Below are positions 14,463 to 59,434 of a stretch of DNA of 64,000 bases, in pieces. The DNA lies in IMG/VR virus record IMGVR_UViG_3300020274_000001, positions 32,001 to 96,000 of that record; one strand, 5' to 3'. This stretch comes from a virus. A program made the translations under genes and the position numbers. Below the pieces are notes generated by a model. That model saw only the letters and a program-made list of their open reading frames with translations, did no database searches and was not told the DNA's origin. The stretch's first letter is position 1; every line of letters starts with the position of its first letter.

Positions 14463-14492
14463 CACGCACACTCATATAATGAAGGAGGAGAG
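14463..14492 (+). promoter_or_regulatory. Conserved promoter-like repeat, copy 1
   Basis: CACGCACACTCATATAATGAAGGAGGAGAG identical at 14463, 15800, 23553. Confidence 0.7.
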
Positions 14493-15003
14493 ACTACAAT
14501 CTCTCAACTAATTGATTGTAAATCTTGGAAGAACCAAGTGCGCGTCTCTCTCCTTCACAGACCAAGGCAGGTTCTTTTGAGCCTGCTGTCCTCTTGTGGC
14601 CTAACCTTCGGGTTTATCAGTGCCACTTGAGGAATCGCAAAAGTCCTACCCCTCCAAGGGTAGGCGAAAAAAAAATCTCCTAAAAGTAATGGAGATTACT
14701 GTAACGAGGTGGTAGAATGGTCGAGAGGCCGGGGGCCGGCCAGTGGAAACACTGCACGGAACGCCACAATTAGCAATACATTCCTGAGAAACAGGACTGC
14801 GACTACGAACCACATTTAATTGTGGCATCCCGTAAGGGATGAAGAAGAATGTGCTTGTGCTCACGCAAAGGTGTCGTCCCGGGTCATGCCGGCGATACTG
14901 ACACAAGAGGAAACTCGCGGAAGTTATAGTAATTATTGATATTACTCGTGGTTTAGCAACCACATAGAAACTTGGGGTGGCTCCCCTTAGCAAAAAGCCA
15001 TAG

Positions 15004-15129
15004 ATGAACGTTCAAGACCTACTTGACAACCCGATGGTTGAGAAGCATATATTTCTCGACTTTGACGGTAACATCGTATGCCGCTTTGAGCATCCGGAAT
15101 TCATTTTCGAGATGACTCAAGAAGCATAA
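15004..15129 (+). CDS. Small hypothetical protein (41 aa)
   Basis: ATG directly after hairpin-ATAG signal. Confidence 0.5.
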   Translation: MNVQDLLDNPMVEKHIFLDFDGNIVCRFEHPEFIFEMTQEA

Positions 15130-15149
15130 CTTGGCCCAATGGGTCACAG

Positions 15150-15431
15150 ATGTCGTTTAATTACGCATTTATCAAAGCAGACACCAAGGCGGAAGTCCTT
15201 GAGGCAGTTTCAAACTTGCCTCATGAACCGAAGCAAGCGGTTTCTGGAACACAGGCCCATGGCCTGTCATTCAGCGGTCCTGCCGCTGATGAGAGAACAA
15301 CCATATGGTATGACTTGGCTAACCCCCAATACTCCATAATGTTCATCCGAACATTTGTCGACGAAAACGACTATGATGGTAGAGAAATCGACCCATCAGA
15401 GTGGGCGTCGACTATGGAAAGACTCTCATGA
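15150..15431 (+). CDS. Hypothetical protein
   Basis: GGCCC-AAT-GGGTC-ACA-G-ATG start. Confidence 0.65.
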   Translation: MSFNYAFIKADTKAEVLEAVSNLPHEPKQAVSGTQAHGLSFSGPAADERTTIWYDLANPQYSIMFIRTFVDENDYDGREIDPSEWASTMERLS

Positions 15432-15799
15432 TGACCCAATGGGTCACAGATTAGAGCACAAACAGACTGTTGTGGAGGTAGAGAACTGTCTCTGCCCAAA
15501 CGACAGGTGCGTTGACAATCCCTTAGACACGGTTCGGTGGTGCTAAGGAGTATATGAACCGAATAGGAATACAGTGATACAGAAGACCTATGTCACATCT
15601 GCCGGCGAGGCAGAGTAATCCGAAATTCGTCTTCGGTGATGTGTAGAACATATTTTAAGTCCAAAAGACCGAGAATATGTAATACACAAGGTAGGGATGG
15701 GAGTTCGAATATTAGATTTGAACATATATTTGCAAATATATGTGCCAAAAATAGTATTCGAACGTAGTAAATAGAGATGTGTGCATCACATATGTGACT

Positions 15800-15829
15800 C
15801 ACGCACACTCATATAATGAAGGAGGAGAG
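15800..15829 (+). promoter_or_regulatory. Conserved promoter-like repeat, copy 2
   Basis: Identical 30-mer. Confidence 0.7.
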
Positions 15830-16435
15830 GGGAGTATCCTAAAAGGACCCCTCAGAGACAACCAACTCCTTCACAGACGCCTAACCGGTCTTGTTTTGTC
15901 GTAAAAAACAATAAGAAGAACGGTAAACAGAAAGAGAGGGATAGAGGGTCCCTCACAGATTGGGCAGGGAAAGACATCTTGTTGATACTGTCTGTGTTTG
16001 CAAAGATTCTGCATTTATGTAGAATCTGCGTAAACTGCATTTAATTGCAAGCAGGCAGAGGAGAGATGGACGGAACTGTCCGAACACATACAACACAGAA
16101 AAGTTGTAACAGTAAAGCCGATGGTCACTTTGAGAAATCAACGTGACTGTCGGCTATTTTTTATGGCCCCATTGGGGTCTTAGGTTGGGATGAGCCATGT
16201 AAGCGGAACTCAAGATATGTCCATGAGAGACCTCTGTTGAGAATTAAAAAACTCACTTGCTAAATCATCCTCAGATTTGTGGGGGAACCCACATATCACA
16301 AGGAGGTGAAACCTTGAATTTATAATACACAACTTTGCGCAATTAGGAACCGATGATGGAGGGTGGATGCCCGTTGATGTCATTGTGCGGTGTAGCAAAG
16401 TGGGCCCCGTTAGAACATGCCGCCGCGGGCCACAG

Positions 16436-16711
16436 ATGAATATCTGCATCCTTTATGCTGATAATCGTCATGTCGATAACATCGACATGTTGTTTCTCTC
16501 AATGAGAGAAAGCCCTGCACGAATCATCGTGCACGAAAATGGCGTTGAGAACGTTGGACTAATTCAGTCCATTCAACGCGAGGACGGCTCTGGGCGGTCG
16601 TTCAATGTCACCGTTTTGGTTGGCGACGAATACCACACGTATTACGTCGGAGAGTATGAAAATAATCCTACTCGACCACGACGAGGAATCAGAGTATTTG
16701 ATTCCGAGTGA
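16436..16711 (+). CDS. Hypothetical protein
   Basis: ATG after GGGCC-ACA-G. Confidence 0.6.
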   Translation: MNICILYADNRHVDNIDMLFLSMRESPARIIVHENGVENVGLIQSIQREDGSGRSFNVTVLVGDEYHTYYVGEYENNPTRPRRGIRVFDSE

Positions 16712-16942
16712 CGGAGCCTATGGTTCCACAGATAAACATGCCAACTATTTCTAAAGTAGTCGGTCACGTCAACGGCACTCCTATATGGGCCGATGTAGAG
16801 ATTAACACCCTTTACACCTGCTCTGACTGCCAGCGTGGTCGATGCAAGATATCGCATGAAGACCAAGTTTGAATCTCATTTCAGACTAATCTTCGACGAA
16901 GTTAATGACTTCACAGAAACAATAGTTTCAGGATTGATAAAT

Positions 16943-17236
16943 ATGAACAAAAATAAGAAATCAAACAAAGCAAGCAAAATATACACAAAAATGTTCTGGG
17001 GACCTTTGCGTCGACTCGAACTTGGGCAATATGCCATGGCTACCAGCCGTGCTATTCCTAAGCCACCCGTAGTCAACTCGAAGGCCAAGAAGGACCCAAC
17101 TGGAAGAGTATCATTCGAAATGATGGGAATCCGGTATGACCTAACTTGGGCCCAACTGCGTGACCATTACCCGTTTTATGCGAGTATGGTGGCGAGTAGT
17201 GTGCAATCGTTCGAGGAGAGGGCTCAAGCCCAATGA
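16943..17236 (+). CDS. Hypothetical basic protein (start uncertain)
   Basis: ORF track. Confidence 0.4.
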   Translation: MNKNKKSNKASKIYTKMFWGPLRRLELGQYAMATSRAIPKPPVVNSKAKKDPTGRVSFEMMGIRYDLTWAQLRDHYPFYASMVASSVQSFEERAQAQ

Positions 17237-20045: not shown

Positions 20046-21083
20046 ATGTCAGACGACATTGAATTGTATGATGAGGTAGACCTCATCAAAAAGATGACGA
20101 GAGATTTGAAAAAATCGTCATCTTCATTGAAGAAACCGGAAGTTCGGTTTCTGGTTGATGCATACTACCGTATGCAGGAAAAGCGTATCCAATACGCCAG
20201 CCAGATTCGAACTATGAAGGAATTCGGTGAGCCGCACGAACTACTAACATGGTTCTACACGCAGGCTCATACCCTTGAAAAGCAAATTGCTGGAGCACTC
20301 GATGCTTACAGCACGAGCAATAAAGTGGGACAATGGATGCGAAGCATTCCGGGCATTGGTCCGGTAATTGCGGCTGGATTCATGGCTCACCTTGATATTG
20401 CTCCGTGGCGTTGTCATAACGTCGGACTCAAGGGCAAGAAAAACCTTCCTTGCACCGCTGAAAAGGGTGCCTGCACAGACAATTGTGGCCACGAGCCTAT
20501 CAATTACGCTGGACAATGGCACACGTTTGCAGGAATGAATCCTCGCATCCAGTGGGAAAAGAAAACACGCCGACCATGGAACACAGCACTCAAAACGCTG
20601 TGTTACAAGTTGGGTGAATCGTTCGTAAAGGTTCAAAACCATAAGGACGATTTCTACGGTCAAATCTTCGTTGCGCGTAAATCCCAAGAATGGGAGCGCA
20701 ACTTCAATGGTGAGAATGCCAAAGCGGCAGAACTTGCTTTGAAGAAAAACATCGGAAAGAACACGAATGCCTACAAGTGGTATTCTGGAGCAGTGGCCAG
20801 TGATTGGGCACGTTCAGAGTGGGAATCCGATAAGAAAGGACAGAAGTTTGGAGGAGCAACGCTCCCCAAGAAAGCAATTGTTGAAGACGGAACACCTATG
20901 CTTCCGCCGGCACACATTCACGCACGAGCGCGACGCTATGTCGCCAAGTTGTTCTTGTTCCACCTGCATCAAGTTATGTGGGAAGTTGAACAAGGTGAAT
21001 CACCGCCACCACAGGCTTTCTTCCAAGACAGTGAAAACATCATTGAGGTGCCAACTGTCTTCCCGAACTCTCCGTTCGTTTGA
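20046..21083 (+). CDS. Nop-domain RNA-binding protein, TasA-like (IS110 Tnp/Nop5-related, no nuclease domain)
   Basis: RFLVDAYY..Q..RI coiled coil, SIPGIGPVIAA, W.FAG..P, RPWN..LK, H..ARARRY..KLFL; no N-terminal DEDD RuvC or HNH. Confidence 0.8.
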   Translation: MSDDIELYDEVDLIKKMTRDLKKSSSSLKKPEVRFLVDAYYRMQEKRIQYASQIRTMKEFGEPHELLTWFYTQAHTLEKQIAGALDAYSTSNKVGQWMRSIPGIGPVIAAGFMAHLDIAPWRCHNVGLKGKKNLPCTAEKGACTDNCGHEPINYAGQWHTFAGMNPRIQWEKKTRRPWNTALKTLCYKLGESFVKVQNHKDDFYGQIFVARKSQEWERNFNGENAKAAELALKKNIGKNTNAYKWYSGAVASDWARSEWESDKKGQKFGGATLPKKAIVEDGTPMLPPAHIHARARRYVAKLFLFHLHQVMWEVEQGESPPPQAFFQDSENIIEVPTVFPNSPFV

Positions 21084-22062: not shown

Positions 22063-22200
22063 ATGAAATGTCCACACTGTGACAAATCTATCGCTGTCCG
22101 GCTTGAACAACCGGGCAAGAAGGCGGCTCGCCGTCGAACTCTTCGTGCCCGTAAGGCAGAGAAGTTGAGAGAAATCCAACCATCTAACGAAGAAGAATGA
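22063..22200 (+). CDS. Small basic CPHC protein
   Basis: Hairpin-ACAG-ATG. Confidence 0.5.
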   Translation: MKCPHCDKSIAVRLEQPGKKAARRRTLRARKAEKLREIQPSNEEE

Positions 22201-22215
22201 CCCAATGGGTCGCAG

Positions 22216-22803: not shown

Positions 22804-23552
22804 CGGTCCAATGGACCATAGTCTGGTAGTTACGAGGTGGCAATAACCCGCCTTAATCGTCCGAGGGTCGCTCCCTTGGGGCCTCGTAGCAACCTCGCTT
22901 GGGTGGAGGCTTTCCACCGCTTGACTTCCTCGGACTTCGGTCCTTGCCGTTCCCAAGACGGGAGGATTAGGTGGGTGCCAGACATCCAAGCGTAGATTAA
23001 AATGAGTATGAAATCGAAGACGCAGACTTTCGTGGTCTGCATGACTTTGATGATGTTCGGTCTTTTCACGACCGTCATCATGCAACTCGGCTAATGGCCA
23101 CAGAGCAACATGGGTAACAGAGGAAATCCATCACGCAAGTCTCGTTGGAGCGGAAAAGCCCATATTAAGGCTGAAGAGAAGCGAAGACGAAGAGAAGAAG
23201 CAAAACAAGCGATAAGGGAAGCACAAATAGAAAGGGTGGAATGTGAAAACGAAGTAATACTCTACCGAAGAATCCCTATTCGATATGATGGCGTAATACG
23301 CAATCATAATTGATTCTTAACGGCCAATGGCCACAGAAAACTGTTAAAGACAATCCGAAGTATGGAGTGACATGCAAGACTACCAAGTCCGATGCACCGT
23401 TGCGGCCATGCTTTATGTCGGAGGGCAAGTTAAGTCCTACGAAGAAGCATTGAAAATTGCAGACAGCATGTTGAATGCTTCTAAGCAGTATCAAGGTTAA
23501 TCGCACATATGTGCCAAAAAAAACCATAGAACAGGGCACAACATATGTGCCT

Positions 23553-23582
23553 CACGCACACTCATATAATGAAGGAGGAGAG
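23553..23582 (+). promoter_or_regulatory. Conserved promoter-like repeat, copy 3
   Basis: Identical 30-mer. Confidence 0.7.
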
Positions 23583-24716
23583 GACCACCAATCCAGAATC
23601 CTTCATAACCCGAGTGTCGCGGAATACTAATTCCGAATGTCACTCGGGTTAGTGTTATTTCATAGAAGGGAGTTTGCTCGAAGCCGAGCATCCCCACAGA
23701 ATACCTACGTGTAAACCCACAAGTGCCTCTTCGGAGGTTGGCCTAATCAGAGGTCCTCGGCGAAAGCCGACCTAATTGTGGTCTCGTAGGGGACACCACC
23801 CCTCCGGCTTGGCCGGTTGGAGTGTGGATTGTGTGTCTTACCGGGGAGTAGCATGAAGACTCCCAAGGTAGGGCTTGGGTATGGTCCGTTCAAAAGGACC
23901 ATAATGCGCAATTGAACACAAGAAGAAAAAAGACAGGAAAATAGTTTGCCGGTAATCAACCCGGGGCTATGGACGTGTTCGCCTTCGGGCGAAGAAGATG
24001 TGCCGGGAAGAGGAAACCCGGTTGTTCTTGGAAACATTACTGCCGTATTCTGGCTGGCACCAGAAGGAGTAGTGGAGAAAGGAGACCCCCTTGGGGGGAT
24101 ACGGAATCATGCTGGGCCTGCACTAACACTGCGGGGTTCCCGGTGATTCTAACGCGCCTGCGGGTTGATAACCGCAGGCCACCGACCATGACGTGAAAAC
24201 CAAAAGGTCGGCATCTGACACAACCGAGAAATCGGACTTTAGTAGATTAACACTCGAACGAGATTTTCTGAATTGTGGACCTGCCGGTTTAAGACCGGAC
24301 GGGCCGAAAGGTATCAATTGGACTGAGGGACCGCTGAATAAGCGGGTCGGCGTTTTAGTCGTTTACCGAAACAAGGAATGGACACGTATCAACGATAATG
24401 ACTTATCACCAATGAACGTCTTACGGTTAGTTCCGTTCCTGTGAATAACTCAAATGCTCTTGGAGAATGTAGCCGTAAGACGTTAAATTCTCTGTCAATA
24501 GAGCCTCCCCATGCCTCCCCGGATGGACACACGTAGATGATGAACTTATTTCATCCGCCACGCTTTGTGAAAGCAACTACGACAGCAGACAAGGAAGGAA
24601 CATCTTCCTTAACTGCATCATTGAAAGCACTTCACGGCGACATGGTGCGAAGAGGATATCCTCCGAGCACTACAACAACTAAAACAAGAGTGGATTGAAG
24701 TTCACTCTTTTTTTTG
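23571..24716 (+). ncRNA. Putative long structured ncRNA region
   Basis: No credible ORF; many GC stems; ends in hairpin plus T-run. Confidence 0.45.
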
Positions 24717-26264: not shown

Positions 26265-26276
26265 TGTCGGGGGCCA

Positions 26277-47628: not shown

Positions 47629-47636
47629 CCTCCATA

Positions 47637-47681
47637 GAACCTAAACACAGACAAGGAAGTGCATTGAAGCATGAAAGGTTC
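47637..47681 (+). ncRNA. TIGR-like guide unit
   Basis: CAGACAAG/TTGAAGCAT. Confidence 0.8.
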
Positions 47682-47685
47682 ACAG

Positions 47686-47967: not shown

Positions 47968-47974
47968 TCCATAG

Positions 47975-48337: not shown

Positions 48338-48346
48338 TGGCCATAG

Positions 48347-48589
48347 ATGGGGACTGAAAGGTTCACACTACACCGACCCGGTGGACACCAAGAACAACAT
48401 AACGTAAACTACGTTTCTGGTGAACTCTCACACGACAACGGTGTTGCTTGCATCAATCTTTCAATGATTGGGCGAGGCTTTGAGGGGACTCTGAGAATAG
48501 GGTATGATGGCAATAAAATCATTATATTCCTAAAAGATTCAGAGAAAGAATCTCACGTGATACACATGTATCCTAAAACCGAGGAATAA
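48347..48589 (+). CDS. Hypothetical protein
   Basis: ATAG-ATG. Confidence 0.6.
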   Translation: MGTERFTLHRPGGHQEQHNVNYVSGELSHDNGVACINLSMIGRGFEGTLRIGYDGNKIIIFLKDSEKESHVIHMYPKTEE

Positions 48590-48598
48590 TTCCTCATA

Positions 48599-48687
48599 GA
48601 GCAAAACATGGTGACTGAATTGCAGTTTAAAAGAACGCTCATAGAACCGAACCAAGTCAGATGAATTGTAAAAACGTTGATTGGTTC
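48599..48687 (+). ncRNA. TIGR-like guides, 2 units
   Basis: TGGTGACT/GTTTAAAA; AGTCAGAT/AAAACGTT. Confidence 0.85.
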
Positions 48688-48691
48688 ACAG

Positions 48692-49903: not shown

Positions 49904-49915
49904 ATAGGTCATAGA

Positions 49916-50374
49916 ATGGTAAACATCTACACAGATGGTGCCTGTATCAACAATGGACTACCAGATGCCAAAGGAGGCATGGGTGTGTTCAGTCAAGAAA
50001 TGGACCTTGAGTTGTCCATACCGTGGGAGATGGAAGTCGAACCTACGAATCAAAGATGCGAAATGGGAGCAGTAGTATACGCTCTTATCGCAATCAAGAA
50101 GACTGAACCAAGTCAAGATACGGTTTTTCAGATTCTAAGTGATTCTGAATACGTTGTTAAAGGAATGAATGAATGGATGAAACAGTGGAAGAACCGTGGC
50201 TGGAAGACAGCCAAGGGAAAGGAAGTAAAAAACCGCTGGCTTTGGGAATTGCTTGATTCGCAATCCAAAGGACTCAACGTCATTTACAAACATGTTCGAG
50301 GACACTCTGGTGTTCTCGGCAACGAAAAAGCAGACTCGCTTGCGCTGTCTGCTGCTGAATCGTTAAAGTTGTGA
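49916..50374 (+). CDS. rnhA: Ribonuclease HI (second copy)
   Basis: IYTDGAC, TNQRCEM, SDSEY, HVRGHSG..GNEKAD. Confidence 0.92.
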   Translation: MVNIYTDGACINNGLPDAKGGMGVFSQEMDLELSIPWEMEVEPTNQRCEMGAVVYALIAIKKTEPSQDTVFQILSDSEYVVKGMNEWMKQWKNRGWKTAKGKEVKNRWLWELLDSQSKGLNVIYKHVRGHSGVLGNEKADSLALSAAESLKL

Positions 50375-50413
50375 AACTTTGTTTAACAATGATTAAGGGC
50401 TTAATGTCCATAG

Positions 50414-50752
50414 ATGGCTACAATGTCAGAAGATGTAGATGACAGTCTCGAGATGTATCGAGAGTTGGCACTACTCGCATCGCATGGTGTTGAAGAATAC
50501 CTTGCGGTGGTAGCAGAATTGCTTGATGCAAGCATACTGCTAAATGGATTGCCCTGCGAAATTTCGCAGAAGGCAGAGGCATGGGCTGAAGAAATATCAG
50601 TCGAAGTGTCTCAAAAAATGGAAGAACAAAATATCATCCCGCACTACTATATAGCGGCGTTGATAGAACAATTGCACAAAGTTGGAGTTATGTCTTTCAC
50701 GACAGGTTTCAATCAAATGGCTTGTCGTAAATTTCAGGAGGCTTACTCTTGA
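50414..50752 (+). CDS. Hypothetical protein
   Basis: ATAG-ATG. Confidence 0.6.
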   Translation: MATMSEDVDDSLEMYRELALLASHGVEEYLAVVAELLDASILLNGLPCEISQKAEAWAEEISVEVSQKMEEQNIIPHYYIAALIEQLHKVGVMSFTTGFNQMACRKFQEAYS

Positions 50753-51090
50753 TTGAAGACTATGAAAATGTAACAGATGAAGAGTTGAAACTTCTTCTCG
50801 ATAGAATTTCCGAATTCGCATTTGACTTTATGTCTAACAAAATAGAGCAATTTGGTGGTCTTACACAGGAGTATTCTCATGAGGATGGCTCTAAGACCGT
50901 TGTTGTTGTTCCAAAAGGGAATGAGGATGTATGCGTAGAGTGGACGGAATGTCCACATGGCAGGGTTGAAGTATTTCACATAACCCCTGTCGGTCTCGAA
51001 ATACCAAGACTCATAATCCCCGCTCCGACAATGATACAGGAACACATCAGTATACCTATTGATGCGTTCACTATGAAATTGGAAGAGTAG
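50749..51090 (+). CDS. Hypothetical protein
   Basis: Overlapping start. Confidence 0.5.
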   Translation: MIEDYENVTDEELKLLLDRISEFAFDFMSNKIEQFGGLTQEYSHEDGSKTVVVVPKGNEDVCVEWTECPHGRVEVFHITPVGLEIPRLIIPAPTMIQEHISIPIDAFTMKLEE

Positions 51091-51108
51091 CGGCCCTGTG
51101 GGCCATAG

Positions 51109-51570
51109 ATGGCAGACGACATCAAAAGCACCGACAGCGACTTGTCCGGCATTAAGTTCGGACTTGACACATCGGGAAACACTCCTACGATTGTGGTAGA
51201 GGGTGTTCGAAATATCGGTTTGAAACAACCGGTGACCCAAGAAAGGTTCAATGAACTCATCGAAACAATGGGAGACAAAATGACAAGCATACTATCTATT
51301 GTTGAAGATGCTTGTAGAAGTCTACGTGACTTAATGAATGAAATGTCTGATGATGAGAAACTCATTGCAACTTACTTGATTGAACATACTACGTGGCAAT
51401 ATGCTGTCGCTTCAGACACGCCACTGTTTATGTTTAATCCTCGACATCTACCAGATGAAGTAGTAGTTGATAACAAATCAAATACAGTAGAAGGGGCCTT
51501 TACTAAGAAAAAAGGCGGCTTCGTTTCTGTCCGAAAGGGCGGAAAGAAATATTGGGAAAAGAAAAAATGA
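51109..51570 (+). CDS. Hypothetical protein
   Basis: ATAG-ATG. Confidence 0.65.
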   Translation: MADDIKSTDSDLSGIKFGLDTSGNTPTIVVEGVRNIGLKQPVTQERFNELIETMGDKMTSILSIVEDACRSLRDLMNEMSDDEKLIATYLIEHTTWQYAVASDTPLFMFNPRHLPDEVVVDNKSNTVEGAFTKKKGGFVSVRKGGKKYWEKKK

Positions 51571-51588
51571 AACGGCCTTATGGCCATA

Positions 51589-51632
51589 GAACCGAACCAG
51601 AGAAAATGAATCACAATCAAAGTGAACGGTTC
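51589..51632 (+). ncRNA. TIGR-like guide unit
   Basis: GAGAAAAT/ATCAAAGT. Confidence 0.85.
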
Positions 51633-51636
51633 ACAG

Positions 51637-51813
51637 ATGGTCACAGACCCCAAAAAAGGACAATGCCCGACATGCGGGCGTTTAACGCTGATATATATTG
51701 ACAGCGAAGTGCACACAGAATGGTGCGAAAAATGCGGGTGGGAACACACCGTCAGTTGGAATGAATTAAGCCCCGACTGGTGGCACAAACAATCAAACAA
51801 ACCGAGCGAGTAA
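51637..51813 (+). CDS. Small Zn-ribbon protein
   Basis: CPTC..CEKC. Confidence 0.6.
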   Translation: MVTDPKKGQCPTCGRLTLIYIDSEVHTEWCEKCGWEHTVSWNELSPDWWHKQSNKPSE

Positions 51814-51821
51814 GGCTCATA

Positions 51822-51865
51822 GAACCGAATCATAACTCGGGAATTACAAATCACCTGTATGGTTC
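51822..51865 (+). ncRNA. TIGR-like guide unit
   Basis: TAACTCGG/AATCACCT. Confidence 0.85.
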
Positions 51866-51869
51866 ACAG

Positions 51870-52196
51870 ATGGATGACAATGAAGACATCATCAGAATTG
51901 CCTCAATGTGGTATCCCTTTGTGGGGGACATAAAGGCAAGACTCGCTATTGGCTTGGAAACATACGGCCATGGCGTGCGTGTCGAAGATGACACAACTCA
52001 ATGGGGCACAGAGGTAAACTCTTGGCTCGAAATGGGATTAGAGGAAATCGATGACTTGGCAATCTATGTCATGGCACAACTCCTCCGAGAAAAAAAGAAA
52101 AACTACGACAACTTGAATGAATTCGCTGGTATACTCAAAGAATTGAGAGACACCAGAAGAAGAATCATGGAAGTCATGTTAAGAGAAGACGCTTGA
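51870..52196 (+). CDS. Hypothetical protein (dimeric all-alpha NTP-PPase-like)
   Basis: G...YG...W..M..EE..D..IY. Confidence 0.55.
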   Translation: MDDNEDIIRIASMWYPFVGDIKARLAIGLETYGHGVRVEDDTTQWGTEVNSWLEMGLEEIDDLAIYVMAQLLREKKKNYDNLNEFAGILKELRDTRRRIMEVMLREDA

Positions 52197-52204
52197 GCGT
52201 CATA

Positions 52205-52250
52205 GAATCAAATCAAAAAGTCGGTATTTTAGACACCACGAGTATGATTC
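52205..52250 (+). ncRNA. TIGR-like guide unit (covariant stem GAATC/GATTC)
   Basis: AAAAGTCG/GACACCACGA. Confidence 0.75.
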
Positions 52251-52288
52251 ACAGTAATCTATAAATTATACATAGTATACGCTATACT

Positions 52289-52498
52289 ATGTCGAGGGTC
52301 GCTAATTGTGCCGTGAGAATCATGGAGCAACACAGTGGCCCGCTTTCTATTTACGAAATACACGCAAGAATGAAAGAGCAAATGAGGAATGTCCCAAAAG
52401 TAGGAGTCCTTGCTCGCAAACTTGGCGGTTGTGACGATATCAGAAGAGTAGGTTACGGTCAGCCATCTATGTGGGTATTGAAGCCGTCACGCTCATAA
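52289..52498 (+). CDS. Small winged-helix (DUF3860-like) protein
   Basis: GPLSIYEI....RNVP....L...L....I. Confidence 0.55.
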   Translation: MSRVANCAVRIMEQHSGPLSIYEIHARMKEQMRNVPKVGVLARKLGGCDDIRRVGYGQPSMWVLKPSRS

Positions 52499-52524
52499 AG
52501 CAGTGACCTTCGGATGCCAATTAG

Positions 52525-52776
52525 ATGGCCCAGATGAATGCCAAGATTAAGGCAATTCCAGAAAGTTCTACGAGAACAGAAAAGGAAATTAAGGACATGC
52601 TTAGACAGGCTGTTCTCACTCGTAACAATTGGCTTGAAGCGTTTGAAAGTTGCAAACAGTTTCAAGACCGACACGGCATGATGGATGCCGCGAGGAACGC
52701 TAAAGCACTTGAAGGCGTTATCAAAACTTTACGTTGGACCCTTGGAGAAAGGGGTATCAACAATCCGCTCTCATGA
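52525..52776 (+). CDS. Hypothetical protein
   Basis: RN.KALEGVIKTLRWTLG. Confidence 0.6.
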   Translation: MAQMNAKIKAIPESSTRTEKEIKDMLRQAVLTRNNWLEAFESCKQFQDRHGMMDAARNAKALEGVIKTLRWTLGERGINNPLS

Positions 52777-52785
52777 AAGAGCATA

Positions 52786-52829
52786 GAACCAAACTAATTC
52801 ACTCGTATTACAAAAGATGCGAATGGTTC
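52786..52829 (+). ncRNA. TIGR-like guide unit
   Basis: ATTCACTC/AAAGATGC. Confidence 0.8.
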
Positions 52830-52833
52830 ACAG

Positions 52834-53121
52834 ATGAACATTGAGAACATCAATGAACTGCAAGAGCAATACGGCCTTGCAGAATGGCAACGGATGATTA
52901 ATGACGGAAGTTGCTGGACCCTTGAGGGTTGGTATGGTAGAAGAGCAGTGGCATTACTCGAGATGGGTGCCTGCTATTTGCCAGAAGAACCACATCACGA
53001 TTACTACGGTAACCAAGTGCCAGCGAGGCACATGCTACAAGCGGGAACAAAAGGAACGCTTGAATTGAGTCAGACCTTCTGGTCTGACGAAAGCAATTAC
53101 GGATTGTTTGAGGAAGAATAA
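52834..53121 (+). CDS. Hypothetical phage-type protein
   Basis: WQ.MI..G..W.LEGWYGR.A. Confidence 0.65.
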   Translation: MNIENINELQEQYGLAEWQRMINDGSCWTLEGWYGRRAVALLEMGACYLPEEPHHDYYGNQVPARHMLQAGTKGTLELSQTFWSDESNYGLFEEE

Positions 53122-53288
53122 GGTCATATTGACCATAGATGCCTAATTCACAAAAAGGTAGAGAGGCCATACTGGGCCTTAATAATTTGAGAGAGAACAA
53201 TAGACTACTCCGAATTCAAAATAGAATGATACAGACTCTTATTGACGAGATTAGAGATATCAGAAGAAGAGGCTTGTGATGCCTCATA

Positions 53289-53330
53289 GAGCAAAACACA
53301 GGGCATGAATTGCAGGGGAACGGTATGCTC
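53289..53330 (+). ncRNA. TIGR-like guide unit
   Basis: CAGGGCAT/GGGGAACG. Confidence 0.85.
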
Positions 53331-53334
53331 ACAG

Positions 53335-53703
53335 ATGGAAGTATCATTTGATACAGATTACGGCCTACAATGGTTTAGAGCCGAAGCGTCTGCTCTCTCT
53401 TACGAGAAGCGACGACATCTATACGACAAAATCTCTCGATGGGAGTATATGGCCAAGAACGGTCCTCAAGGTTGGGCTCACGCCCAAGGCGAGGCCGCAA
53501 GAGAGTTGAGCCGTCGTCCTTTAACGGGACACATGAGAGAATTGTTAATTGAAATCAAAGGAATAGCATGGGTCGAAGAAACCGACTATGCGCACCTAAG
53601 AAAAAAACAAAAGGAAGAAAGAGAAAGGTTAGAACGCAAACAGAAACAGGAAGCCTACTTCGCTAAACTTGATTCTGCGCTTGACGACCTTTTGAAAGAG
53701 TAA
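53335..53703 (+). CDS. Hypothetical protein
   Basis: ACAG-ATG. Confidence 0.6.
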   Translation: MEVSFDTDYGLQWFRAEASALSYEKRRHLYDKISRWEYMAKNGPQGWAHAQGEAARELSRRPLTGHMRELLIEIKGIAWVEETDYAHLRKKQKEERERLERKQKQEAYFAKLDSALDDLLKE

Positions 53704-53721
53704 GGAGGAATACCTCCATAG

Positions 53722-54303
53722 ATGGTGAAAAACACCTTCAAAATTGTGGCTGTCGTCAAAGAGGAAAACAAGCAATTGATTTGGGACCTCTTACAAATTG
53801 CACTAAAGCATGACGACATCTATTTTGCATTTGAGGAAGGCAAGCCCTCCGAAATAATGCATAAACCAGCCGACATCAAAAAACTGTCGAAAAAGAAGAA
53901 GAAACCGGAGAAACCTACTCTATCAAGAAAGGAAGTATCCAAGTTGACCAAAGAAAGCATGAAGAAACTCAAAGCAGAGAAACGTGTTTTCACTGGAGCA
54001 GTATTCGGTTGGGATAATCAAAAAGATGGCACAATGAAGCCAAACTGGAAAGAACAAGAAACCATAGACATGATGCGATACTTTTACTACGAAAAGAAGC
54101 AATCATTCTCTTTTATTGCGAAGTGGCTCAATGCCAACGACGTAAAGGGAAAGCGTGGTGGAAAGTGGCAAAGTTCGGGAGTATCAAGAGTCGTTCACAA
54201 CGACTTCCATGCTTCTCGAAATGACTTCAAGAAACCTAAGTGGTTTTTGAAGAAGACCTATCCAGAAATGACATGGGGTAAGAACCCAAAAATCGTCTCG
54301 TAA
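53722..54303 (+). CDS. Serine-recombinase DNA-binding domain protein (no catalytic domain)
   Basis: FGW...EQETI..M...S..FIAKWLN...KRGGKW....V. Confidence 0.7.
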   Translation: MVKNTFKIVAVVKEENKQLIWDLLQIALKHDDIYFAFEEGKPSEIMHKPADIKKLSKKKKKPEKPTLSRKEVSKLTKESMKKLKAEKRVFTGAVFGWDNQKDGTMKPNWKEQETIDMMRYFYYEKKQSFSFIAKWLNANDVKGKRGGKWQSSGVSRVVHNDFHASRNDFKKPKWFLKKTYPEMTWGKNPKIVS

Positions 54304-54311
54304 GGGACATA

Positions 54312-54402
54312 GAGCAAAACAAGTCGTGGGTATTGCACATATTCCATGTATGCTCATAGAACTGAATCAATAAGGTTGTATTGCAATTGGCCAAAAAGGT
54401 TC
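54312..54402 (+). ncRNA. TIGR-like guides, 2 units
   Basis: AGTCGTGG/CATATTCCAT; ATAAGGTT/ATTGGCCA. Confidence 0.8.
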
Positions 54403-54406
54403 ACAG

Positions 54407-54634
54407 ATGGATGTTAAAGAACTACATCAATATGTCTCGCAACTGCGAGAATACATTGTGACGCTTGAGCGTCGCATTGCTACACTTGAAAAACAAGTGA
54501 ATCCGCCACAGACCAAGGACCTTGGTAACGGGCGGAGAACGTTCACACGTTCAGGTATCAACAACCTGCTCGACGGAATGATTGGGAGGCACCGAAAGGA
54601 CCCCGTCACCGGAGAGTGGCACAAAGTGAATTAG
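54407..54634 (+). CDS. Hypothetical coiled-coil protein
   Basis: ACAG-ATG. Confidence 0.6.
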   Translation: MDVKELHQYVSQLREYIVTLERRIATLEKQVNPPQTKDLGNGRRTFTRSGINNLLDGMIGRHRKDPVTGEWHKVN

Positions 54635-54648
54635 GCCAATAGGCCATA

Positions 54649-54692
54649 GAACCTAAACACAAGAAGGGAATTACATGAGCCCCGAATGGTTC
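54649..54692 (+). ncRNA. TIGR-like guide unit
   Basis: CAAGAAGG/TGAGCCCC. Confidence 0.85.
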
Positions 54693-54696
54693 ACAG

Positions 54697-55212
54697 ATGT
54701 CTGTAAAAGAATACGTGCAGATACGTGCTGACCAATACAAACAGCATGACAACGTCTGGGGGGATTTACCCCGAGATGCGCCAATTAGATTGGCTGATAT
54801 CTTTGAATGGATATTACAGAATGGACAAACCTTTAGCGGGACCAATATGGATGCCGCTGATGAAATTGTCGAGCATTCTTTTCGTGCACCAGAAATAAAG
54901 GCGTGCTACCATAATGCGTTTTTAGTCCCCCCAGAAGTAAGATACTTCGAGGGATGGTGGGCAGGAATTATTCCTGTCGAACATGCGTGGAATGTCGTAG
55001 ACGACAAAGTCGCTGATGTAACGCTCACTATTGAGCAACATCGTGAACGAGCGTTGAGAGACAGACAAGAATACTTTGGAATTGAAATTCCAAGGGATTG
55101 GATGTGGAAGCAAGTAAGTAAAGGAACACACTTTAGGCCAGAAGGCTCGAGTGGTCCTTTCATCTACGACTACGTTATGGAGCAAATCGCAAAAGAACGA
55201 GAAGAGGAATAA
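54697..55212 (+). CDS. Hypothetical protein (transglutaminase-like Cys-His-Asp)
   Basis: CYHNA..Y.EG...EHAWNV....DVT. Confidence 0.65.
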   Translation: MSVKEYVQIRADQYKQHDNVWGDLPRDAPIRLADIFEWILQNGQTFSGTNMDAADEIVEHSFRAPEIKACYHNAFLVPPEVRYFEGWWAGIIPVEHAWNVVDDKVADVTLTIEQHRERALRDRQEYFGIEIPRDWMWKQVSKGTHFRPEGSSGPFIYDYVMEQIAKEREEE

Positions 55213-55221
55213 TTCCTCATA

Positions 55222-55310
55222 GAGCAAAACATGATACCAGCATTACAGCCAATCCGAATGCTCATAGAACCGAATCAAGTTTCACGTATGGCAAGTTCGT
55301 CGTATGGTTC
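55222..55310 (+). ncRNA. TIGR-like guides, 2 units
   Basis: TGATACCA/GCCAATCC; AGTTTCAC/AGTTCGTC. Confidence 0.85.
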
Positions 55311-55314
55311 ACAG

Positions 55315-55731
55315 ATGGCATTAACATGTCCAGATTGCGGTCAAGAGACCGCTTATGTGCGTGTCGGCATTTACGTCGACCCACATGACACAAGTGTCGA
55401 GGCCCTGTCTGAACAGGTCAGCGACATCATAGGCACAGGACCGGAAGACTTCGACGACGAACTTCCTACGGTCTGTGCAGAGTGCGAATGCCAAGTCCCA
55501 TACAGACTTGCATTTGCCGCCACTGTAAGAAAGCAGGCTCACAAGAATGACGAAGAAGCGGCAATGGCTTACCGTCATGCGCTTGCTGGAGTTGTCCATT
55601 TCTTTGGACGCCTACCAATCGCCGAAAATGAGGCTTGGACAGAGGACCAGCATGAAGCCTATGAAGCAACACACCGTTTGTTCGCTGTTCTTGATGAACC
55701 CGAACAAGACGAAACCTCGGAAGAGGAATGA
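55315..55731 (+). CDS. Zn-ribbon hypothetical protein
   Basis: CPDC..CAEC. Confidence 0.6.
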   Translation: MALTCPDCGQETAYVRVGIYVDPHDTSVEALSEQVSDIIGTGPEDFDDELPTVCAECECQVPYRLAFAATVRKQAHKNDEEAAMAYRHALAGVVHFFGRLPIAENEAWTEDQHEAYEATHRLFAVLDEPEQDETSEEE

Positions 55732-55932
55732 CGGCCTTACGGCCATAGATGGCATGGAAAGATGACATTTGGAGATTGGCTAATCAGTTAAATCTCGAGT
55801 ATAAGCGTGATATGTGGTCTCCCGTTCACGCTTTTAATGCAATCGTAGCAGAACTTGAACGTCTTCGTGATGAAGACCTTTCAGACTGTTACATTACACC
55901 CGATAGTTAATCGGTCGGCCCTGCGGCCATAG

Positions 55933-56574
55933 ATGAAGACAAACATCAACATCCAACTCGAAGGCGAAGAAGCCCTCGAGGTTATACGGGCTTTGCTTGG
56001 AAACCCAAGTAAGTCTGTCAAGGTAGAAGTTCTACCAGACGATACACAAACGACAGAAAGTCGTAAAATGACAGAAGAACCAGACAACACTCGACATTGC
56101 ACAAGATGTGGAGTGAAATTAGAATCTTCTGTAAATATCAAAACAGGTAGATTTATTCGAAGAGAATTTGTCTGCAATGGTTGTTATTCTGGAAGCAGAA
56201 AGGGCAAGAAGGTGAACCGAACAGGTTCCAATCACTGTCGTAAATGCGGAGTAGAATTGACAACAGATAATTGGCAGAGTAAACGAAGTTATATCTGCAC
56301 ATCTTGTAAAGTCAAAAAATCGGATGACCACGTTACTATCACGGCTGAACAGCGAACCCAGTGGGCTCGTGAACGTCGTGAAATCATAGGCGGCAAAATC
56401 ACACAAGTAGGAACCTTCCAAGGTGCGCTCATCGTAGAGCATATCCGAGGAACACACTACAAGATACAACTCCCAAGCGGAGCAGTGATTGACGCCAAGC
56501 ACAAGAAGCAGAAGACCCTTGGTGGGGACGAACTCGGTGCTGGTTGGAGTAAGTGGGAGAAACGGTCTGGATAG
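55933..56574 (+). CDS. Double Zn-finger protein
   Basis: CTRC..CNGC, CRKC..CTSC. Confidence 0.65.
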   Translation: MKTNINIQLEGEEALEVIRALLGNPSKSVKVEVLPDDTQTTESRKMTEEPDNTRHCTRCGVKLESSVNIKTGRFIRREFVCNGCYSGSRKGKKVNRTGSNHCRKCGVELTTDNWQSKRSYICTSCKVKKSDDHVTITAEQRTQWARERREIIGGKITQVGTFQGALIVEHIRGTHYKIQLPSGAVIDAKHKKQKTLGGDELGAGWSKWEKRSG

Positions 56575-56580
56575 ACCATA

Positions 56581-56668
56581 GAGCAAACAAGCCATCCGAA
56601 ATATACAAAATGTGAAGGCTCATAGAACCCAATCAAGTGATTTGAAATACAGGAAATTTGAATGGTTC
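56581..56668 (+). ncRNA. TIGR-like guides, 2 units
   Basis: AGCCATCC/CAAAATGT; AGTGATTT/GGAAATTT. Confidence 0.85.
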
Positions 56669-56673
56669 ACAGA

Positions 56674-57333
56674 ATGCCTAATTGGGCTTACAACAATATG
56701 ACCGTTGAGTCAGACGGAAGCGAAACAGGTGATGAACAATTGCGCTGTTTCGTTAATGTCGCTATCACTGAAGATAGCGAATTGACTTTTAGCGGTCACT
56801 TACCTATGCCGAAAGAACTCGACATAGGCAATGCTCCCTTTGCTGGAATAAAGGATGATGAATCTCTGCTCGAGGCGTTAGCCAAGATAGAGAATCCAGA
56901 AACGCCGGAGTTTACAAAGGGGAACTTACTAAAACAAATCAAGATGTATCAGAACAAGAAAGAATTCGGATACTCTTCTTGGTATGACTGGAACTGTGCC
57001 AAGTGGGGGACAAAGTGGGATGCTTCGCAATCCAATGTCTCCTCTTTCGGAAATAGTGTTCAAATCAGTTTCAATACTGCTTGGGACCTACCGAGAGGTT
57101 GGCTTTTTCATATAATGAACTTAGCAGAATGCTCACACCTGCGAATACGCCTTGTGTGTGAAGCAGAAGGTGAAGCAGTTATACTGGACTCCAATGGAAA
57201 GGAAGTCCCGTATGAAGAAAATGTAGACGGACAATGGTTTCACCATGCCGAATATGTTGAGAAAGAGCCTAATGGTAAAATCAGTCATTACAATAAAACC
57301 GCCGAACAACGGTGGAAAGACGGAGAATTTTAA
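56674..57333 (+). CDS. YubB/DUF1281-like protein
   Basis: MPNW..N, WYDWN..KWGTKWD, F.TAW. Confidence 0.8.
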   Translation: MPNWAYNNMTVESDGSETGDEQLRCFVNVAITEDSELTFSGHLPMPKELDIGNAPFAGIKDDESLLEALAKIENPETPEFTKGNLLKQIKMYQNKKEFGYSSWYDWNCAKWGTKWDASQSNVSSFGNSVQISFNTAWDLPRGWLFHIMNLAECSHLRIRLVCEAEGEAVILDSNGKEVPYEENVDGQWFHHAEYVEKEPNGKISHYNKTAEQRWKDGEF

Positions 57334-57341
57334 TCTCCATA

Positions 57342-57430
57342 GAGCGAATCATTCAGCCTGTATTGCACAGCCTAAGAACGCTCATAGAACCGAACCATCA
57401 TTGAGGAATTACAAAACACCAGAATGGTTC
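57342..57430 (+). ncRNA. TIGR-like guides, 2 units
   Basis: TTCAGCCT/CAGCCTAA; TCATTGAG/AAACACCA. Confidence 0.85.
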
Positions 57431-57434
57431 ACAG

Positions 57435-57815
57435 ATGTCAGAAATTATTCATGACAGCCACGTTGAGTTAGAGAGTCTATCTCGACGATACATTGAGGAG
57501 CAAAGAGCCCTCAAGCAAGCGAAGGATTCAGTAGAATCCATCAAAAAGGATATACAGAAAATCCTTGGGAGTTCACGTTTTGTGGAAACCCAGCACTTCA
57601 CCGTAGAGGTGAAGGAAGTGGAACAGAAGAGAATGATGAGTAAAGACGATTTTATTCGCAAACATTCTCCACCAATGAAGGATTCACAAGGCAACGTCAT
57701 GCTGAATCCAGACAACGAACCAATCCTTGACACTGCTGTTGGAGCGAAATTCTACAACGAACATCTTGTAGAGCGTCCTTCCAACAGATTCTATGTGAAG
57801 AAAAAACCGGTCTGA
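57435..57815 (+). CDS. Hypothetical protein, paralog of 58785
   Basis: Coiled coil then G..ET..FT motif. Confidence 0.6.
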   Translation: MSEIIHDSHVELESLSRRYIEEQRALKQAKDSVESIKKDIQKILGSSRFVETQHFTVEVKEVEQKRMMSKDDFIRKHSPPMKDSQGNVMLNPDNEPILDTAVGAKFYNEHLVERPSNRFYVKKKPV

Positions 57816-57825
57816 AAGGACCATA

Positions 57826-57915
57826 GAGCAAAAACATCGTCTCTGAAATGCACAAGAAAGGAATGCTCATAGAACCAAATCAAGCATGCTGAATTGCAGG
57901 TGATTCGTAAGGTTC
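57826..57915 (+). ncRNA. TIGR-like guides, 2 units
   Basis: TCGTCTCT/CAAGAAAG; AGCATGCT/GGTGATTC. Confidence 0.85.
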
Positions 57916-57921
57916 ACAGAA

Positions 57922-58569
57922 ATGCGTTATTTCAAAAATTATGACGACGCTTGGAGTTATCTCCAAAGAGGTCGAAACATCGAGAAGGGGAGACCTATCG
58001 GTGCGCACACCAGAATTTACAAACGTAAAGATGGAACAATAGCAATCAGATATCACAGCACTGATATTGTTCGCTATTACAAGCATAAGAACGGAAAGCA
58101 ATGGATGTCATTTGACAACGAGGGATGGACCTCCACGACAACATTGCAAAGACTGCATTACGTCATGCCCAATGGCATAGGCGTCGATACGAGTCTAAAC
58201 CGATTCATAGGACAGTGGTTTACCAGATGTAACGGTGAATTATACAACCTAAACCATCACGTAAAATTCGATGAAAATCTTAACGTAAAAAACAAGAAAC
58301 AGATGTCTCTGAAAACGATGGACAATATCAGTGATGCTGGGACAAGAATAAGAAAATTGTTAGCATCATCATTGAGTTCAATTGAAAGAGATGTTTCAAA
58401 GAAGAGGCAAGAAAATGCCGAACTCTCCTACGAGAGAATTCAACTTCGTGGCGAAATAATGGCTTTCGAAGAAATGAGAGAAACACTTCGTGGAGAAGTA
58501 GGATACTTGTTGAAACTAAAGAAGGGCGACACCGATAATGGTGCAAAAGACGTCCTCAACAGGGTGTAA
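57922..58569 (+). CDS. Hypothetical phage-type protein
   Basis: IRYH.T.IV...GW...TT..RL. Confidence 0.65.
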   Translation: MRYFKNYDDAWSYLQRGRNIEKGRPIGAHTRIYKRKDGTIAIRYHSTDIVRYYKHKNGKQWMSFDNEGWTSTTTLQRLHYVMPNGIGVDTSLNRFIGQWFTRCNGELYNLNHHVKFDENLNVKNKKQMSLKTMDNISDAGTRIRKLLASSLSSIERDVSKKRQENAELSYERIQLRGEIMAFEEMRETLRGEVGYLLKLKKGDTDNGAKDVLNRV

Positions 58570-58577
58570 TGCCCATA

Positions 58578-58780
58578 GAGCGAAACATCGAACCCGAATT
58601 ACATTGAACCCGTAATTCGCTCATAGAGCGATAGGTCATAGGACTAAACCATAACAAAAGAAATACAAGAGGTCTGAAAAGTCCATAGAGCAAACAACAA
58701 CGAAGAACTGTATACAATTAGAATGCTCATAGAACCGAACCACACCAAATATGCCGAATTACAGGGTGGCAGAATGGTTC
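58578..58780 (+). ncRNA. TIGR-like guide array, 4 units
   Basis: TCGAACCC/TTGAACCC; TAACAAAA/AGAGGTCT; ACAACGAA/TACAATTA; AATATGCC/GGGTGGCA. Confidence 0.85.
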
Positions 58781-58784
58781 ACAG

Positions 58785-59168
58785 ATGTCAGACGACATAC
58801 AATACGTCATGGCCAGAATTAAGGCCATGGAAGATGTGAGAAAGAATCTCGCATCTGCGATAAAGAAAGACAAAGAATATGTCAGAGAAACAATGGGTGA
58901 AAGGGAAGTCTTGGAGACCCCAGCCTTCACTGCAAAGATTGTTACTCGGACTTCAACACGATTGTTGGGGATAGAACATATTCGTAACCTATTAGGGTCG
59001 ACAACCGTGGATAAAATCACGAAGACGTCGGAATCTAAGTCGCTGTCAATCAAAGAAACGTTGGCTAATTTTGAACCGTTCGAAGTCGAAGACCTCGAAT
59101 TAGTTCCAGATTGGGCCAAGTCTGCCGCTATTACGCTACAAGTGAGGGAATTACTTGGCGAGAATTAG
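58785..59168 (+). CDS. Hypothetical protein, paralog of 57435
   Basis: ACAG-ATG. Confidence 0.6.
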   Translation: MSDDIQYVMARIKAMEDVRKNLASAIKKDKEYVRETMGEREVLETPAFTAKIVTRTSTRLLGIEHIRNLLGSTTVDKITKTSESKSLSIKETLANFEPFEVEDLELVPDWAKSAAITLQVRELLGEN

Positions 59169-59427
59169 GCGAGCATCGGACAGATATCATACTCAAATCG
59201 AAACGATATTGAGAGAAAAAGGTCCGCTTGTTGCTTATGACATCCGTCAAGCAATGGTTGGGCGTTGGAAAAACGTCCCTACTCCGAATCAACTCGGAAA
59301 CCTATTAGCGAAAAACAAGAACATTAAATCATTAGGACCGGGACACAAAAAATCGTTCTCGGCTCTACTCGATGGTTCTGGCACAGGAGGTGTAAACCTC
59401 TGGGCTTTGGTTGAACAAGGGGATTGA
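59155..59427 (+). CDS. DUF3860-like winged-helix protein
   Basis: GPL..YDI...VPTPNQLGNLLAK..NI...G...LWAL. Confidence 0.65.
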   Translation: MARIRRASDRYHTQIETILREKGPLVAYDIRQAMVGRWKNVPTPNQLGNLLAKNKNIKSLGPGHKKSFSALLDGSGTGGVNLWALVEQGD

Positions 59428-59434
59428 CCCCATA

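Follow-up and report, generated by a model that had tools for sequence, protein, structure and literature searches.

Gene junctions in a 45-kb block of one virus record are punctuated by a common signal: a short stem-loop, the trinucleotide AYA, and then a G that either precedes a start codon or opens a small stem-closed RNA unit. The record, IMGVR_UViG_3300020274_000001, is a single sequence of 140,336 bp. The window analysed here is the 64,000-nucleotide stretch made up of its bases 32001-96000, and coordinates refer to this window unless given as genome positions. The signal, written below as stem-AYA|G, is real, strong, and conserved. A preliminary description of this DNA had proposed that an endonuclease cuts long transcripts at these sites into leaderless mRNAs and mature guide RNAs; that mechanism is the best-supported reading, as yet unproven.

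14481-59640, plus strand: one-way block with about 80 small genes, stretches of non-coding RNA, and small units, with stem + AYA|G punctuation

All small genes between 14.4 and 59.6 kb run one way, on the plus strand, with a strong purine skew. Within 14481-59434, the signal was counted as a hairpin of at least 4 Watson-Crick bp with a loop of 3-8 nt, abutting A[CT]AG. There are 63 such sites on the plus strand and 12 on the minus strand, compared with a mean of 9.2 (sd 2.7, maximum 15) in 40 dinucleotide shuffles. Stems of at least 5 bp leave 35 plus-strand and 4 minus-strand sites (shuffles, 2.2). Moreover, A[CT]AGATG occurs 51 times on the plus strand (47 in the region) and 11 times on the minus strand. 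The motif is confined to this 45-kb block of the 140-kb element: over the whole record, 64 plus-strand sites lie in the block and 20 in the other 95 kb, the corresponding minus-strand numbers being 12 and 22. Approximately 54 of the 63 plus-strand sites are at boundaries of open reading frames (ORFs), and the 7-9 or so within ORFs are at chance level. The hairpin-tail-G punctuation of gene junctions is thus confirmed. Its frequency is not equal within genes or on the opposite strand; plus-strand boundary sites dominate.

The preliminary description gave the tail more broadly, as NYA. With NYAG, the counts are 103 (plus strand), 40 (minus strand), and 30.6 (shuffles). The true signal is therefore taken to be A[CT]AG plus a few GCAG, TCAG, and TTAG tails. 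These rarer tails mark real junctions, mainly at 18-22 kb. The broader formula therefore stands for ACA, ATA, and those few variants, and falls for CCAG, GTAG, and GCAG matches within genes, which are mostly chance.

Pairing is kept across sites and sequence is not, as originally noted, with over 25 distinct stems in use. If one internal G.T pair is tolerated, 12 further hairpins appear before A[CT]AG, several clearly at gene starts; other mismatches add 4 (A.C), 3 (G.A), and 2 (C.T). The tolerance of G.T on the coding strand, together with G.U pairs in the units described below, indicates on small numbers that pairing occurs in the plus-sense RNA. Simple hairpin sites carry no information upstream of -16, and position -1 is a purine.

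Stop codons often sit in the loop, as had been claimed. Counting ORFs of at least 40 codons, the stop lies in or overlaps the loop at 24 of the 64 block sites and abuts the hairpin at 16; otherwise it overlaps the 5' arm (3), lies within the 3' arm or tail (1), or is more than 3 nt upstream (7), and at 13 sites no such ORF ends within 35 nt. On the downstream side, a stem or unit with NYAG stands 0-3 nt before the in-frame ATG of 52 of the 84 plus-strand ORFs of at least 50 amino acids (aa), a crude set that includes spurious ORFs of non-coding stretches and in which about 4 of the 52 junctions look like chance. Most block genes would be leaderless, starting as G-AUG or with G plus 1-2 nt. Individual sites include the four that had been cited as examples, all with correct coordinates.

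15133-15149, plus strand: hairpin GGCCC-aat-GGGTC (one G.T pair) + ACAG, with ATG at 15150; identical in relative L128
18623-18639, plus strand: hairpin GACC-taatg-GGTC + TCAG, then ATG; a TGA stop overlaps the 5' arm
22199-22215, plus strand: hairpin GACCC-aat-GGGTC + GCAG, then ATG (earlier example)
32928-32945, plus strand: hairpin GAGAC-ttga-GTCTC + ATAG, then ATG (earlier example)
39284-39301, plus strand: hairpin GGAGA-ataa-TCTCC + ATAG, then ATG; stop in the loop (earlier example)
53704-53721, plus strand: hairpin GGAGG-aata-CCTCC + ATAG, then ATG (earlier example)

(In many early hairpins, including that at 26270-26292, the loop AAT followed by GG creates an ATG within the loop; the longest ORF at 26277 starts there.)

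One and the same mark, stem-AYA|G, bounds genes, tandem units, and conserved non-coding RNAs. Since gene junctions and units share the same ends, a single end rule (stem-AYA, then G) holds for both.

21471-59526, plus strand: span with 42 stem-closed units of 44-52 nt
52205-52253, plus strand: unit with compensatory stem GAATC..GATTC for GAACC..GGTTC

Each unit starts with the G after one AYA and ends with the AYA before the next G, its closing stem being formed by the first 4-7 bases and those immediately preceding its own AYA. The G had been described as the first base of a guide stem, and in the 42 units it indeed pairs with the C preceding the next AYA. Two types are present: 27 type B units, G-AACC..GGTTC-ACA (two with variant stems counted); and 15 type C units, G-AGC..GCTC-ATA. 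A unit is built in this order: stem, AAxCA, about 8 variable nt, GWAWTRCA, about 8 variable nt, GWA, stem, AYA. The units lie directly before genes, alone or in C+B tandems, mostly one or two to a gene and never more than three together; the last, at 59435-59526, have no gene after them.

Across the units, 95.5% of closing-helix cells are paired, and five of the six pairs vary on both sides, although part of this covariation is the split between types B and C, possibly a single event. None of 500 shuffles reaches the observed values, and slid registers are 18-50% paired. Compensation independent of this split is seen at 52205 (GAATC/GATTC), at 58641 (GGACT/AGTCC), and in the sixth pair (G.U, 10; A-U, 7; U-A, 2; G-C, 1). 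Neither tRNA genes nor Rfam families were found. The idea that the spacers target the element itself was rejected: 168 joined-spacer queries gave 2 one-mismatch matches, which is chance level.

Some RNA contig ends coincide with the predicted G. The RNA data are two seawater metatranscriptome runs from one sample, probably the source of this DNA, in the form of assembled contigs; an oligo-dT RNA run containing relatives (X20) and DNA runs were compared, and neither runs with a small share (X4-X19) nor stretches lacking RNA cover were used. Contigs were placed on 40000-59600, and the figures come from the 31 of 98 pieces listed. Among these, 4 of the 13 distinct left ends of same-sample RNA contigs fall exactly on a predicted G, where chance is 0.0032 per end, vs 0 of 15 DNA contig ends. 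Three of the starts follow type B units, and the fourth follows a simple hairpin.

40466-40512, plus strand: type B unit; an RNA contig starts at G 40513, with ATG at 40514
46465-46511, plus strand: type B unit; an RNA contig starts at G 46512 (G-A-ATG)
57826-57918, plus strand: tandem of type C (57826-57871) and type B (57872-57918) units; RNA contigs of both runs from the one sample start at G 57919
45186-45201, plus strand: hairpin GAGC-actt-GCTC + ATAG; an RNA contig starts exactly at G 45201

Because DNA contigs cross these sites, the RNA ends are not assembly breaks induced by repeats. The preliminary description had predicted RNA 5' ends at or near the G, and at these four sites they lie exactly on it. 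(The stretch 45201-45670, 470 nt with no convincing ORF, has the deepest RNA contig listed, at depth 33. Probably this is an abundant non-coding RNA whose start is a hairpin-ATA|G site.)

The motif is conserved in relatives whose RNA polymerase (RNAP) is 62-66% identical, as well as in a closer one. The relatives are metagenome loci reaching about 7.5 kb into the block, and the stretch beyond the RNAP operon was compared.

L133: 18 sites on the same strand, 2 on the opposite strand, about 1.1 in shuffles
L130: 15 on the same strand, 5 on the opposite strand, about 1.2 in shuffles
L136: 9 on the same strand, 1 on the opposite strand, about 1.1 in shuffles
L128 (95% relative): 7 on the same strand, 1 on the opposite strand, about 1.5 in shuffles

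The conservation extends to starts of non-coding RNAs, with counterparts of ACAG-ATTAGAGCAC and ACAG-ATTGGGCA in L130 and in L140, its near duplicate. Orthologous genes bear different stems, and one has a unit-type GAATGGTTCACAG end. Gene order varies among relatives; in L133, homologues of the window genes at 18.4 and 26.3 kb are adjacent. Searches of IMG/VR gave only single, chance-level matches to patterns of unit ends, no close relatives in single-protein scans, and only distant giant-virus contigs by RNAP alignment; among species genomes, RNAP alignment gave only cellular archaeal or unrelated contigs.

A somewhat better than even chance is given to an RNA processing code that releases leaderless mRNAs and units resembling tigRNAs, the guide RNAs of TIGR-Tas systems. 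A few promoters would generate long precursors of the block, ended only at a few T-run terminators. Every segment, whether mRNA, non-coding RNA, or 44-52-nt unit, would end with a short stem and ACA or AUA. An endonuclease would read the stem plus AYA and cut before the next G. The upstream product would keep a stem-AYA tail that protects its 3' end; the downstream product would begin with G, as a G-AUG leaderless mRNA or as the first paired base of a unit. Either a host RNase or a protein of the element not yet recognised as a nuclease could be the cutter. Inferred in this scheme are cleavage as the origin of the ends, the great length of the precursors, and the use of a single enzyme for mRNAs and units.

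Several considerations favour cleavage, some of them set out below against initiation. The stems covary and tolerate G.U, properties with no role in a double-stranded promoter. Separate promoter-like and T-run signals exist, and they are few.

45653-45665, plus strand: promoter-like motif ATATTCTAACAC|G; RNA contigs of two runs start at G 45665
14446-14493, 15783-15830, and 23536-23583, plus strand: three copies of a 48-nt repeat, CATATAATG + AAGGAGGAGAG (CACATATGTG..CACGCACACTCATATAATGAAGGAGGAGAG)
59575-59620, plus strand: stem + run of 9 T (T-run site 59610), closing the block
16157, 17637, 24708, 26800, and 32629, plus strand: further terminator-like sites of hairpin + T-run

The start at 45665 is a fifth RNA left end, found in both runs and preceded by this different motif; it lies 12 nt after the start of the 45653 copy. 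The motif family, (G)AAACATATTCTAA(G), also written ATATTCTA(A), has seven plus-strand copies (29400, 29611, 29980, 30117, 45496, 45653, and 46041). CAATATA lies 13-20 nt upstream of three copies. The family seems to be a genuine promoter or initiator class, distinct from the punctuation. Each copy of the 48-nt repeat is followed by a non-coding stretch of structured appearance, closed by a hairpin and T-run, and these repeats are candidate primary promoters of abundant non-coding RNAs. The punctuation stems themselves are followed by AYAG and not by a T-run, and the T-run sites lie at six separate places on the plus strand. Between 32.63 and 59.61 kb, the sole run of at least 6 T is one of 6 T at 39819.

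Outside the block, by a loose test, motifs like GGAGG or GGTGA stand 5-12 nt upstream of 22 of 36 genes. (Examples of such Shine-Dalgarno [SD]-like motifs, GGTGA, GAGGT, and GGAGG, are at genome positions 3204, 25355, 116084, and 126994.) The preliminary description had core blocks lacking the signal and using SD-like motifs instead; the first half holds, since the signal is confined to the block, but an SD-like motif is not found at all core-block genes. With the block leaderless and many other genes SD-led, the element appears to have two modes of translation initiation.

The strongest rival, on balance unlikely, is that transcription initiates at the G. The element's multisubunit polymerase, or that of the host with element factors, would use the units (AAxCA, GWAWTRCA, AATGG-stem-ACA), and perhaps the hairpins, as compact promoters or stop-start signals, giving each gene its own leaderless transcript. 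Much that weighs against cleavage bears on this choice. Initiation and cleavage are equally compatible with RNA 5' ends at the G, and the window encodes an unsplit, 1664-aa Rpb1-like polymerase subunit. The GWAWTRCA of the units is centred about 24 nt before the G, the place of an archaeal TATA box, and AATGG recurs at -11 to -7 in early hairpins and units. No same-sample RNA contig crosses a junction as a precursor would, and 0 of the 14 RNA contig right ends among the pieces listed are at hairpins. Furthermore, the RNA evidence consists of assembled contigs from two runs of one sample, and contigs alone cannot prove starts. Junction-spanning contigs appear only in the oligo-dT run, from relatives 90-99% alike; they are not counted as precursors, because that run may hold DNA. 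(A-rich internal priming, polyadenylation, and DNA carry-over are possible sources of these spanning contigs.) The claim of cutting into leaderless mRNAs and guides is supported in part. Of the conditions that the preliminary description set for refuting it, none held in three tests: on motif frequency within genes and on the opposite strand, on RNA 5' ends, and on joints in close relatives. RNA 3' ends give it no support.

Initiation nevertheless leaves stem covariation and G.U tolerance with no role in a double-stranded promoter, and simple hairpins have no conserved sequence upstream of -16. Multisubunit polymerases prefer a pyrimidine at -1 and a purine at +1, whereas here -1 is A. The C+B tandems would have to be promoters firing into promoters to make 45-nt RNAs, and the units at 59435-59526 precede no gene. 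Another motif, TATA-like plus ATATTCTAA, exists with its own RNA 5' end. Finally, Rpb2 appears to be absent from the element: the Pfam domain 6 model, RNA_pol_Rpb2_6, had 0 matches in a six-frame search of the whole record.

Cleavage requires an enzyme, and profile searches detected no gene for RNase III, EndA, beta-CASP, or Cas6 in the element, which also counts against it. The preliminary description had suggested TasA or host RNase Z, RNase P, or EndA as the cutter. None is implicated, EndA for want of any such gene in the element. RNase P needs a stem downstream of its cut, and the mRNA starts here have no such stem; RNase Z cuts one nucleotide after a stem, not three. Both are therefore poor fits. 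Host aCPSF1 was considered and set aside, a further difficulty for cleavage: the archaeal enzyme (PMC3553952) prefers single-stranded CA and cuts between C and A in vitro, one base off the observed end, and the ATA sites have no CA.

20046-21083, plus strand: gene for a 345-aa TasA-like protein with a Nop/IS110-C-terminal-like fold; hairpin + CCAG + ATG before the gene

The TasA-like protein belongs to a family with 2523 matches. A profile of 25 homologues matches TasR (9MTY, E 2.9e-19; the TasR complex of Faure et al. 2025, PMC12045711), TasH (E 2.2e-6), and also IS110-family recombinases. In its AF2 model (pLDDT 86.5), the ten best Foldseek matches in PDB are TasH or TasR chains, with E values of 1e-6 to 2e-5. 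No nuclease domain was found in the protein. It is termed TasA-like because the Nop-like part is matched and there is no room for an N-terminal RuvC domain. At the C-terminal tail positions of its Ser329 and Ala324, aligned family members have His (21 of 25) and Tyr or Phe (20 of 25); the protein may thus have lost an RNA-processing dyad, perhaps the published Y/H one. The first unit lies 388 nt downstream of the tas-like gene. The preliminary term "guides" for the units is plausible, given their stem-closed, dual-spacer layout and the adjacent Tas homologue. (Punctuation as a general property of TasA-bearing viruses was rejected: in 80 IMG/VR loci the density of hairpin + AYAG has a median of 0.15 and a maximum of 0.73 per kb, vs 1.42 here.)

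The cleavage reading can be extended, tentatively and at clearly less than even chance. One nuclease, of a hitherto unrecognised kind, would cut transcripts of 27-45 kb into about 100 pieces, comprising about 50 leaderless G-AUG mRNAs and about 42 TIGR-like guides; guide biogenesis would be mRNA maturation, and each gene with its own guide unit would be a shuffling cassette.

An improbable alternative makes the signal a recombination or cassette site, acting as a single-stranded DNA hairpin with a tetranucleotide (like integron attC, REP/RAYT, or IS200) or through microhomology, with secondary effects on expression. It draws on the varying gene order of the block, on the orthologues with different stems or a unit-type end, and on breakpoints. 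Where contigs of relatives in run X20 have different neighbours, a site is no more than 25 nt away from 9 of 14 joint coordinates and from 4 of 6 loose ends, compared with 15% expected; ambiguous alignment of similar units may account for some of the joints. The preliminary description had made enrichment of gene gain and loss breakpoints at the motif a test, and in these close relatives most joints do lie near sites. (At the 53704 site, a relative's contig has another upstream neighbour from 53714.) The PeSL cassettes of T4-type phages are a precedent for shuffling repeats (PMC2839356 and PMC4122927). Yet six-frame searches of the 140-kb record with PF00589 and PF01797 (tyrosine integrase, Y1/HUH) found no match at E <= 1, and the single serine recombinase is in a core block. 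Nor would a recombination site explain RNA ends at G, coding-strand polarity with ATG 0-3 nt after the G, or G.U tolerance.

Least probable of all is that nothing is cut and the hairpins stabilise or insulate a polycistronic mRNA, AYAG-ATG serving translational coupling or re-initiation without an SD sequence: stop codons do fall within or beside the hairpin, with the next ATG 7-25 nt away, many 5' arms resemble GGAG or GAGG, and cluster K mycobacteriophages offer a precedent in their start-associated sequences (PMC3203893), but four RNA contigs start exactly at G and the same signal flanks untranslated units and non-coding RNAs.

No description of a stem-AYA|G motif was found in the literature searched, supplementary files excepted. 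Several known systems resemble it in part. Mitochondrial tRNA punctuation and the RNase III sites of the T7 early region both cut long transcripts at structures into mRNAs, and the mitochondrial products are leaderless or nearly so. Here, however, there are no tRNAs and no RNase III gene, and the signal is a stem of 4-7 bp with an AYA|G tail. Histone pre-mRNA carries a 3' stem-loop and ACCCA and is cut by CPSF-73, but its downstream product is degraded and is not an mRNA. The likeness to the histone and aCPSF1 systems lies in a short GC-rich stem-loop, an A/C-rich tail, a cut a few nucleotides after the stem, and an enzyme family universal in archaea.

TIGR-Tas (PMC12045711) is similar in having two variable segments of about 8-9 nt around a conserved centre, closed by a stem, with a Tas (Nop-like) protein nearby and a trinucleotide at the stem base marking the boundary. 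The closest precedent for a stem plus trinucleotide is the maturation of stem-loop tigRNAs, which reportedly takes place at a conserved CUU where the stem begins, through a nuclease that has not been identified (bioRxiv 10.64898/2026.09.09.750476). The present system differs in several respects: AYA and then G replaces CUU; the unit consensus lacks CUU/UG and the box C/D motifs UGAUGA/CUGA; units are scattered in front of about 30 genes across 38 kb and form no array at tas; and about 50 simple hairpins that close protein genes are followed by this mark as well. PeSL elements (PMC2839356, PMC4122927) likewise are short stem-loop repeats between small accessory genes of a plastic, modularly shuffled region. 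They combine a terminator stem-loop with a sigma-70 early promoter, whereas here 4 nt separate stem from ATG, with no upstream promoter consensus and no T-run. The cluster K mycobacteriophage tags (PMC3203893) also place a short conserved word just before many starts of one gene block, but those words have no obligatory covarying stem and delimit no small RNA units.

The element's record is classified as viral and complete, with direct terminal repeats. (Its ends, genome positions 1-200 and 140137-140336, consist of GC-rich tandem repeats of about 33-40 nt, CACGGCGGCGSAAGWCA, in direct orientation.) Besides the Rpb1-like subunit, the window encodes a family B DNA polymerase (PolB), a primase small subunit, and an MCM helicase; outside it are a thermosome-type chaperonin, a PD-(D/E)XK nuclease, and the serine recombinase. 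Several ORFs of 900-2200 aa have no Pfam match, and no Pfam match to capsid, portal, or terminase was found among 19 large ORFs outside the window. RNAP homologues of 56-97% identity are on marine metagenome contigs, and more distant ones are in bins labelled Poseidoniales. By gene content, the element matches the "group D" magrovirus type of marine group II archaea: PolB, thermosome, resolvase, archaeal-type RNA polymerase A, and no recognisable morphogenetic block. Philosof et al. and a related paper (PMC5434244, PMC10160649) describe group D by PolB, thermosome, resolvase, RNA polymerase A, and the lack of a morphogenetic block, and leave its nature open. The words "hairpin" and "promoter" are absent from both papers, and "intergenic" from the one where it was checked. 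Elsewhere in the record, genome positions 120396-123200 (L163:10396-13200) encode a 934-aa protein with HAD/PNKP-type phosphatase and NUDIX domains. Its domains suggest that it could act on RNA ends, by decapping, pyrophosphate removal, or 3'-phosphate healing.

If cleavage is correct, this would be, within the literature searched, the first dense system of transcript punctuation in an archaeal virus-like element, and a natural case of leaderless mRNAs made by processing and not by initiation. It would also tie TIGR-Tas guides to ordinary gene expression, and stem + AYA|G would be a substrate with which to find the nuclease that matures tigRNAs. If initiation is correct instead, the signal would be an unusually compact gene-start code for a virus-encoded multisubunit polymerase, and still new. 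The signal also provides a first regulatory grammar for the poorly understood "group D magrovirus" elements of the abundant marine group II archaea, and metagenome annotation can draw on it for gene starts, small RNAs, and cassette boundaries.

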